Positions 37,206 to 37,370 of a DNA stretch of 64,000 nucleotides are shown one piece after another (the first letter of the stretch is position 1; every line of letters starts with the position of its first letter). Where the stretch lies: NCBI GenBank assembly GCA_946220775.1, contig CAMIFC010000001.1:30260-94259 (forward strand), in the 5' to 3' direction. The position numbers and the translations under genes are program-made. This DNA is from an uncultured Corynebacterium sp. (GTDB lineage Bacteria; Actinomycetota; Actinomycetes; Mycobacteriales; Mycobacteriaceae). A model generated the notes under the pieces. It had not been told where the DNA came from. It did no database searches and saw only the letters and a list, made by a program, of their open reading frames with translations.

Positions 37206-37230
37206 CAACCCGTATAGGAATACATTTGTG
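37206..37230 (+). repeat. motif copy TTTTTAGGACGCCAACCCGTATAGG
   Basis: Best consensus copy; 15 bp upstream of the ligA start codon (on the opposite strand). Confidence 0.55.
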
Positions 37231-37354
37231 TAATTAGTTACATCTTTCCTCGCAGAAAGTGATGTGGGTCATAATTGCTGACGGTGGGTAAAATTAACCG
37301 GGTGTAGTGATTAGGTTGGCCAATATAGTTAAGTATTTATAGTTGGCGGCCGGA

Positions 37355-37370
37355 ATGGCGTCCTAAAAAA
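37355..37370 (-). repeat. motif copy, reverse orientation (ATGGCGTCCTAAAAAA)
   Basis: Inverted partner of the 37206 copy, 125 bp away across an AT-rich segment. Confidence 0.55.

Follow-up and report, generated by a model that had tools for sequence, protein, structure and literature searches.

To our knowledge, sequence-specific DNA uptake is known only in the Neisseriaceae and the Pasteurellaceae, the genomes of which are marked by DNA uptake sequences (DUS and USS, respectively). The known receptors of uptake sequences are minor pilins of Gram-negative type IV pili, and the flanks of USS are AT-rich. Among Actinobacteria, we know of natural transformation in essentially only Micrococcus luteus, and of no sequence specificity there. 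Intragenic copies of DUS are common and intergenic DNA is especially permissive for them; furthermore, DUS form inverted pairs at terminators and exist as dialects (PMC3630211). Transformation of M. luteus is documented and proceeds via Flp pili (PMC4322843). The literature that we searched by sequence and by topic contained no prior description of the word reported below, and no competence, natural transformation or uptake sequence in Corynebacterium.

We analysed a 64-kb stretch of Corynebacterium DNA (hereafter the window), together with 130 kb of selected loci of a second genome, the metagenomic ERZ1036872, and 98 kb of loci from relatives. The window contains five full intergenic copies of the motif TTTTT[A/C]GGACGCCA[A/T]NCCG, and many more copies of its 8-nt core lie inside genes. 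We propose that this motif is, very probably, a genome-wide and lineage-specific over-represented word, rather than a local regulatory site or a transposon end. The copies of the window that are needed below are as follows:

18552..18570, + strand: full copy TTTTTCGGACGCCAACCCG, which has the top PWM score (29.2 bits)
19206..19224, − strand: full copy TTTTTAGGACGCCAATCCG, the inverted partner of the copy at 18552
37194..37212, + strand: full copy TTTTTAGGACGCCAACCCG, separated by 2 nt from the first ATG of the ligA ORF
37351..37369, − strand: full copy TTTTTAGGACGCCATTCCG, the inverted partner of the copy at 37194
51898..51916, + strand: full copy TTTTTAGGACGCCAAACCG, directly 3' of a terminator-like hairpin (51853-51877)
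4132..4152, + strand: degenerate or doubtful member, intergenic, T-run plus TGACGCCACCGCG with a core mismatch (17.6 bits)
34844..34864, − strand: best coding copy, aatttttcGGACGCCAcccgc, antisense in the gene 33905-35071 (24.4 bits)
3461..3481, − strand: coding copy ctttttcaGGACGCCAcccca, on the sense strand of the gene 2129-4075 (23.7 bits)
60996..61016, − strand: coding copy ttcttttcGGACGCCAtcctg, in the gene 60513-61142 (23.3 bits)
58166..58186, − strand: coding copy agtttttgGGACGCCAaccac, antisense in the gene 57812-58852 (21.8 bits)
1600..63747, both strands: 35 occurrences of the core GGACGCCA/TGGCGTCC, 29 of them coding and 6 intergenic

The original prediction, made from the letters of the window, had listed six copies. 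Five of them are the full intergenic copies above, which do include two inverted pairs but lie 6-12 nt away from the coordinates given at the time; the sixth, placed at 4135, is at best a degenerate member of the family, the core being mismatched in the sequence at 4132-4152 (TTTTTTGACGCCACCGCG). The first pair surrounds the DUF2550 gene, as had been predicted, in the gene order atpC, DUF2550 (PF10739) and then a peptide ABC-transporter operon. It belongs to an inverted repeat of 33 nt with 82% complementarity (18539-18571/19205-19237) on the two sides of the PF10739 gene, and it spans 673 bp. The T-run of the copy at 18552 extends the T-tract of the atpC terminator hairpin (18507-18538), and the DUF2550 start lies 63 nt downstream of this copy, while the copy at 19206 has its A-run on the + strand, 19 nt 5' of the GTG start of the SBP_bac_5 gene. 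The second pair lies between ligA (35068-37191, − strand) and accBC (start at 37600, 230 nt downstream of the copy at 37351), ligA facing accBC, accD, fas and acpS. It is an inverted repeat of 19 nt with 89% complementarity (37194-37212/37351-37369) and it spans 176 bp (37194-37369); the neighbours and the AT-richness anticipated for it were found (38% GC between the arms), but the spacer is 138 nt long instead of 125 bp. The fifth full copy, at 51898, is 65 nt upstream of the start (51982) of an RNase_T-type exonuclease gene.

Several further features of the window were noticed. The annotated ligA start, an ATG at 37191 that is 2 nt from the motif, is devoid of a Shine-Dalgarno sequence (window 37181-37191); the N-terminus of LigA is not conserved with that of the sister species L126, one gene caller has translation begin 14 codons further in (693 aa in L120), and the genuine start is uncertain. 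The 520 nt that separate acpS from the copy at 51898 are empty apart from a 40-codon ORF, MFFIREAASMAEFGTYIFGDDGALTIEVDNSDRLSGDMLA (51709-51831, + strand), with a GAGGAG ribosome-binding site, which is followed by the hairpin 51853-51877. The Rfam search at the gathering threshold found the atpB RNA motif alone (RF02916, 11133-11262, + strand, 99 bits, full length), directly 5' of atpB.

The core GGACGCCA is the commonest 8-mer of the window (35 copies in 64 kb, about one per 1.8 kb), the top 9-, 10- and 11-mers of which are all part of the same word. It is also the commonest 8-mer of the ERZ1036872 loci (97 copies in 130 kb, or 79 after dropping the 18 copies that seeded these loci), and the pooled Corynebacterium loci of the relatives contain 6 cores in 98 kb. 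When up to two mismatches were allowed, TTTTTAGGACGCC matched the window 15 times versus 0.74 expected from shuffles, and the 13-mer GGACGCCAACCCG matched it 27 times versus 3.5 expected. Nothing could be learnt from max-order Markov statistics of k-mers, since the parts of the word are themselves enriched.

The word had been thought to occur in intergenic DNA only, which is contradicted by the 29 coding cores (out of 35), the coding copies retaining the T-rich 5' flank. About two thirds to five sixths of the cores lie inside genes, bearing in mind that GC3-based gene calls over-extend N-termini and that coding status is backed by Pfam/PDB alignments in selected cases. Synonymous-codon shuffles performed gene by gene gave 6.35 ± 2.5 cores (maximum 15, 200 shuffles) versus 27 observed. 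Hence, codon usage and protein sequence do not account for the excess of cores, and the word occurs well above chance frequency in coding DNA. The coding copies hold the extended consensus, with a T at position −3 in 66-71% of them, then A/C, and C-C-C-G after the core. A PWM built from the ERZ1036872 copies only found 28 sites in the window at the threshold of >=14 bits; the highest scores are those of the five intergenic copies (25.8-29.2 bits), and the coding copies come next (15-24 bits). In C. urealyticum (L116) and C. heidelbergense (L117), this PWM found one site per 20 kb.

Six coding copies were aligned to their orthologues. The relatives have near-matches in place, with no indels (GGAAGCCA, GGAGGCCA, GGCGGCCA and GGATGCGA at the core sites, versus GGACGCCA), from which it follows that the aligned coding copies arose in place by point substitution. 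These substitutions are of several kinds, some of them being amino-acid changes within variable segments. In ERZ1036872, exact 19-mers occur in an amidase gene (downstream of the GGSSGG signature, with no gain in length versus NylA, 3a2p), in an MFS transporter gene (between its two halves) and within a lycopene-cyclase Pfam domain. All three are the C variant TTTTTCGG, which in the FSDANP frame (two of the three genes) avoids a TAG stop. Another gene of this genome, of the ComF family (L112, approximately 2400-2520), reads through a motif copy (RVGVLKK) and encodes N-terminal CxxC pairs and a C-terminal VIIVDDVMTTGAT. It is frameshifted in the assembly at a run of 6 A, where 7 A would restore the frame; a homopolymer error of the assembly, a pseudogene and a slippage switch are all conceivable.

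The alignment of 41 copies from the window and the ERZ1036872 loci showed about 20 conserved nt between unrelated flanks, which argues against a MITE with a shared body. The logo of this 20-mer comprises a weakly pyrimidine-rich lead-in, T5-7, A/C, GGACGCCA, A/C, N and CCG; the unit is asymmetric, in agreement with the initial description of the word as not palindromic. A TATAG extension had also been described. It is present in two copies and in those two only, the 41-copy logo being without conservation past the 20-mer. Outside the window, close inverted pairs with the T-runs outward recur with a spacing that varies from 36 to 76 nt; they occur in the ERZ1036872 loci (L045, L083, L098 and L108) and in another species (L124, 11754-11790). 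In two of the ERZ1036872 pairs, the partner is followed by a T-run in the manner of an intrinsic terminator, whereas most pairs have their T-runs outside the stem.

The metagenome scan for the 19-mer returned 18 exact copies on many contigs of ERZ1036872 (about 20-26x coverage, 59-62% GC). The pgi identities, 99% to sequences without a species name only and 73% to C. jeikeium, indicate that ERZ1036872 is another Corynebacterium of the clade of the window, and none of its loci overlaps the window. Among the GTDB representatives (one genome per species), from which the species is apparently absent, the 19-mer had 40 matches, none of them in Corynebacterium; about 35 would arise by chance, and homologous loci of Xenorhabdus and a few further genera roughly make up the rest. 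No copy was found on either side of DUF2550 in C. urealyticum (L116), C. heidelbergense (L117), L118 and L122, although L122 has the DUF2550-SBP arrangement of the window with a 71% identical DUF2550, and no copy was found near ligA in the sister species L126 and L127 (LigA 80%). The loci L124 and L125 represent a further Corynebacterium, with a pgi 71% identical to that of ERZ1036872. In L124, a variant composed of a T-run and CGACGCCACG was found: all 9 occurrences of GACGCCA in 21.7 kb are part of CGACGCCAC, most of them after a T-run. The inverted pair at 11754-11790 comes directly after pgi, and other variant sites lie at, for example, 3018, 8439, 8889 and 19546. The L124 word looks like a variant (a 'dialect') of that of the window.

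Other repeats were met in these genomes. The C. jeikeium-like genome L118 has an intergenic tandem array (13382-13779) of about 32-nt units (…TCTCG[G/T]TCTGCTTTTCG…GGGGGG…), which dominated the k-mer counts of that locus. ERZ1036872 has two other intergenic repeat families of 70-80-nt perfect hairpins (REPIN/MITE-like), located at L060 4732-4802, L110 1731-1798 and 2031-2098, L108 5909-5986, and L114 415-492 and 1807-1884; neither family is related to the GGACGCCA word or occurs in the window.

The proteins of the window match identically on human-skin metagenome contigs. The nearest named relatives are C. heidelbergense, C. resistens, C. urealyticum and C. urogenitale (73-78% identity for LigA, 65-69% for DUF2550), and the host of the window is a lipophilic-clade Corynebacterium. 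Strains of this species differ by 1.1-1.4%. All examined strains keep the copies and differ by point changes only: empty sites (presence/absence polymorphism), which were sought in L001-4, L119-121 and L128-134, were not found. Between strains, the motif positions show 2 changes per 76 nt versus 15 per about 786 nt for the flanks. As motif changes are as frequent as flank changes, these small numbers of low power give no sign of strong constraint on the copies. Among about 16 cores compared across strains, one was lost, namely the core upstream of ligA (the copy at 37194), which is mutated to GGACTCC in L128-L130, and one was gained, being found only in L128, the window holding a one-mismatch form at 46636. 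Both differences fall at the same core position, TGG[C/A]GTCC.

The neighbourhood of the copies has also been rearranged. In the window, the 14.7-kb accBC-accD-fas-acpS block separates ligA from the RNase_T-type exonuclease gene (35068-52688). These two genes are divergent neighbours in the sister species L126 and L127 (62 nt apart in L126, 3438-6310) and, presumably, in C. glutamicum. From the adjacency in the sister species, we conclude that this essential lipid-synthesis block was translocated in the lineage of the window. Motif copies lie at both junctions of the block, a coincidence to be expected from one core per 1.8 kb and the intergenic preference. A role of the word as a recombination site was rejected as the main explanation: two other breakpoints are without copies and so is the DUF2550-SBP junction of L122. 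The peptide ABC-transporter operon that lies between DUF2550 and nucS (window 19244-24204) is absent at that place in C. urealyticum, C. heidelbergense and L118. One permease is split in the window (20864-21511/21521-21886), as are the SBP (476 + 73 aa) and one ATPase (80 + 129 aa) in other strains (L131-L134), and the operon looks decayed. Lastly, C. urealyticum (L116) and L126 have a Na+/H+ antiporter gene between etfA and a nifS-like gene; the window does not (31252-31329), and its junction there has no motif copy.

The original prediction had considered the ends of a decayed mobile element and a promoter element as possible identities of the copies. Terminal inverted repeats of a decayed element of the MITE/REP type would agree with the inverted pairs with outward T-runs (176 bp at 37194-37369; 46-76 nt in the ERZ1036872 loci), with the copies that flank the translocated accBC-fas block and with the absence of copies from the orthologous sites of relatives. 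Likewise, REP/REPIN and MITEs (e.g., the Correia elements of Neisseria) are short, species-specific intergenic repeats, single or in inverted doublets, near gene ends. However, they are mobile and essentially intergenic, with conserved interiors or palindromic cores, whereas nothing is common to our copies beyond the 20-mer, the pair interiors and flanks being unrelated. Moreover, target duplications are absent (37194-37369 is bordered by cattc and agggg), most cores are genic and without indels, the aligned coding copies arose by substitution, strains show no presence/absence polymorphism, and no transposase was seen beside the copies. The two other palindromic repeat families found by a self-BLAST of all loci are not linked to the word, the palindromic ERZ1036872 families being unrelated to it. 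We regard a mobile-element origin as highly improbable; membership in the REP/REPIN class was rejected, the unit being non-palindromic and most cores lying inside genes. The search for a phage link in IMG/VR yielded one chance match. Equally improbable is that the word serves a regulon as a promoter element (−35/UP), an operator or a 5'-UTR element. When read in the A-run orientation, about half of the intergenic copies do have a Shine-Dalgarno-like purine stretch and a start codon downstream, within <=100 nt, and TATAGT or TATAGG follows two copies of the window, but neither the orientation (the copies at 18552 and 51898 are co-directional with the downstream gene, that at 19206 is opposite) nor the distance to the start codon is fixed. 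In addition, the T-runs at 18552 and 51898 abut upstream terminators (hairpins 18507-18538 and 51853-51877), copies occur in 45-nt gaps within operons and inside genes, the genes that follow them have nothing in common (they include transporters, pgi, purC, a CCA-adding enzyme and pirin), a second box is not conserved, and the orthologous promoters and intergenic regions of relatives are without the word. Sigma-70 and terminator scans showed nothing consistent.

Among the explanations that act chromosome-wide, we give very little credit to polar signals such as Chi or KOPS (read by RecBCD/AdnAB or FtsK). Like Chi and the KOPS/SRS octamers, the word has a core of 8 nt that is over-represented and that genes tolerate, and the cores of the window are biased 24:11 (69% on one strand) towards TGGCGTCC on the strand that is richer in G and in genes. 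These octamers are strongly strand-polar and have no flanking consensus, the 20-nt extended consensus with its T-tract being foreign to them, and the word shows no consistent polarity; the second genome is unskewed (49:48 by local GC skew) and goes the opposite way with respect to genes (35:25 sense/antisense), and the five full copies of the window are distributed 3:2 between strands. A by-product of sequence-specific mutation, repair or methylation with no function of its own, as proposed for HIP1, is improbable, though less so. It would explain that copies originate in place via substitutions, that they are not conserved more than their surroundings between strains and that both strain-specific differences hit one core position. 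Cyanobacterial HIP1 (GCGATCGC) is also a lineage-specific, over-represented 8-mer of coding and non-coding DNA, the cause of which is debated, but it is palindromic and methyltransferase-linked, whereas the present word is asymmetric with a long flanking consensus. Known repair biases act on words of 4-6 nt, not on an asymmetric 20-mer with a T-tract, and the creating substitutions are of several kinds, amino-acid changes included. The strongest competitor, although we still find it rather unlikely, is that the word is bound by an abundant protein with sequence specificity (for nucleoid organisation, insulation or similar) and is selected chromosome-wide; a nucleoid-associated or global DNA-binding factor had also been among the options of the original prediction. 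An asymmetric site of about 20 bp with an A/T-tract beside a GC-rich core resembles the sites of bent-DNA proteins; the high density without consistent polarity, the lineage specificity and the L124 variant would fit a co-evolving protein, and the best copies are near gene borders. Nevertheless, the sites of known nucleoid proteins are degenerate, and no comparable effect on codon choice is known for them (27 versus 6.4 cores here), the core of the ligA copy is mutated in several strains, and the genes downstream of the copies share no function.

The word is over-represented, its aligned coding copies originated in place by substitution, it is lineage specific with a variant in another species, and no polarity was detected in the ERZ1036872 loci, against 24:11 in the window. 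From this genomic signature, we tentatively infer that the word may work like a DNA uptake sequence (DUS/USS). We favour this uptake-like reading because the asymmetry, the density, the presence on both strands and both in genes and between them, the point-mutation origin, the lineage specificity and the inverted pairs are combined here as they are in DUS/USS. The over-representation typical of DUS/USS was found in the 64 kb of the window, of which the core is the top 8-mer, and in the 130 kb sampled from ERZ1036872. Coding and intergenic copies coexist and arise by point mutation, the best copies being where the sequence is permissive (the top five PWM sites are all intergenic). As to lineage specificity, the word is absent from the orthologous sites of L116, L117, L118, L122 and L126, and a related variant occurs elsewhere. 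Several observations weigh against this reading: the lack of any transformation or uptake specificity in the Corynebacterium papers that we searched, the changes between strains, as frequent at motif positions as in the flanks, the strand imbalance of the window and the frameshift in the ComF-family gene of ERZ1036872. The word itself reads (T-rich)TTTTT[A/C]GGACGCCA[A/C]CCCG, with the five intergenic copies as its best-preserved members, and very probably occurs throughout the chromosome, with a core roughly every 2 kb on either strand, inside genes as well as outside them. In the uptake-like reading, a component of the uptake machinery would preferentially bind DNA that bears the word, so that DNA of the same species would be taken up and recombined more often. 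This uptake bias, acting on point mutations, would enrich the word at all sites that permit it: in its full form between genes, and partially within them, through codon choice and changes in variable protein segments.

With somewhat more reserve, we suggest that the word might represent the first sequence of the uptake-signal type outside Proteobacteria, in which case some lipophilic skin corynebacteria could be transformable and prefer their own DNA by means of a word of about 20 nt, related species using variants such as CGACGCCACG. If true, transformation may allow skin corynebacteria to exchange chromosomal DNA, with recognition of their own, which bears on gene flow and on the spread of resistance in the skin microbiome, and which offers a possible route to genetic tools for poorly tractable species. 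Even with another cause, such as a chromosome-organising protein or a repair bias, it is unusual in this phylum, and unexplained, that codon choice and protein sequence are reshaped genome-wide by a word of 20 nt.

Similarly to the DUS of Neisseriaceae (10-12 nt), the corynebacterial word is asymmetric, occurs about once per 1-2 kb, is present in genes but best kept intergenically, occurs in inverted pairs, of which only some are followed by a T-run as in a terminator, and has species variants (PMC3630211). It differs from DUS by its longer consensus (about 20 nt) with a T-tract, by the T-runs of most pairs, which lie outside the stem and thus not where a terminator has them, and by its host, a Gram-positive actinobacterium with neither known competence nor a known ComP-type receptor. 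With the USS of Pasteurellaceae (9-nt core and AT-rich flanks), it shares a GC-rich core beside an A/T tract, an extended consensus of 20-30 nt, many genic copies in permissive frames or variable protein segments, and a point-mutation origin; it differs from USS by its single T-tract on one side only, by the phylum of its host and by its function, which is here predicted from the genomic pattern. As a candidate word of the uptake-sequence type, it would be new in being carried by a Gram-positive actinobacterium, in being longer than DUS and in having a one-sided T-tract.
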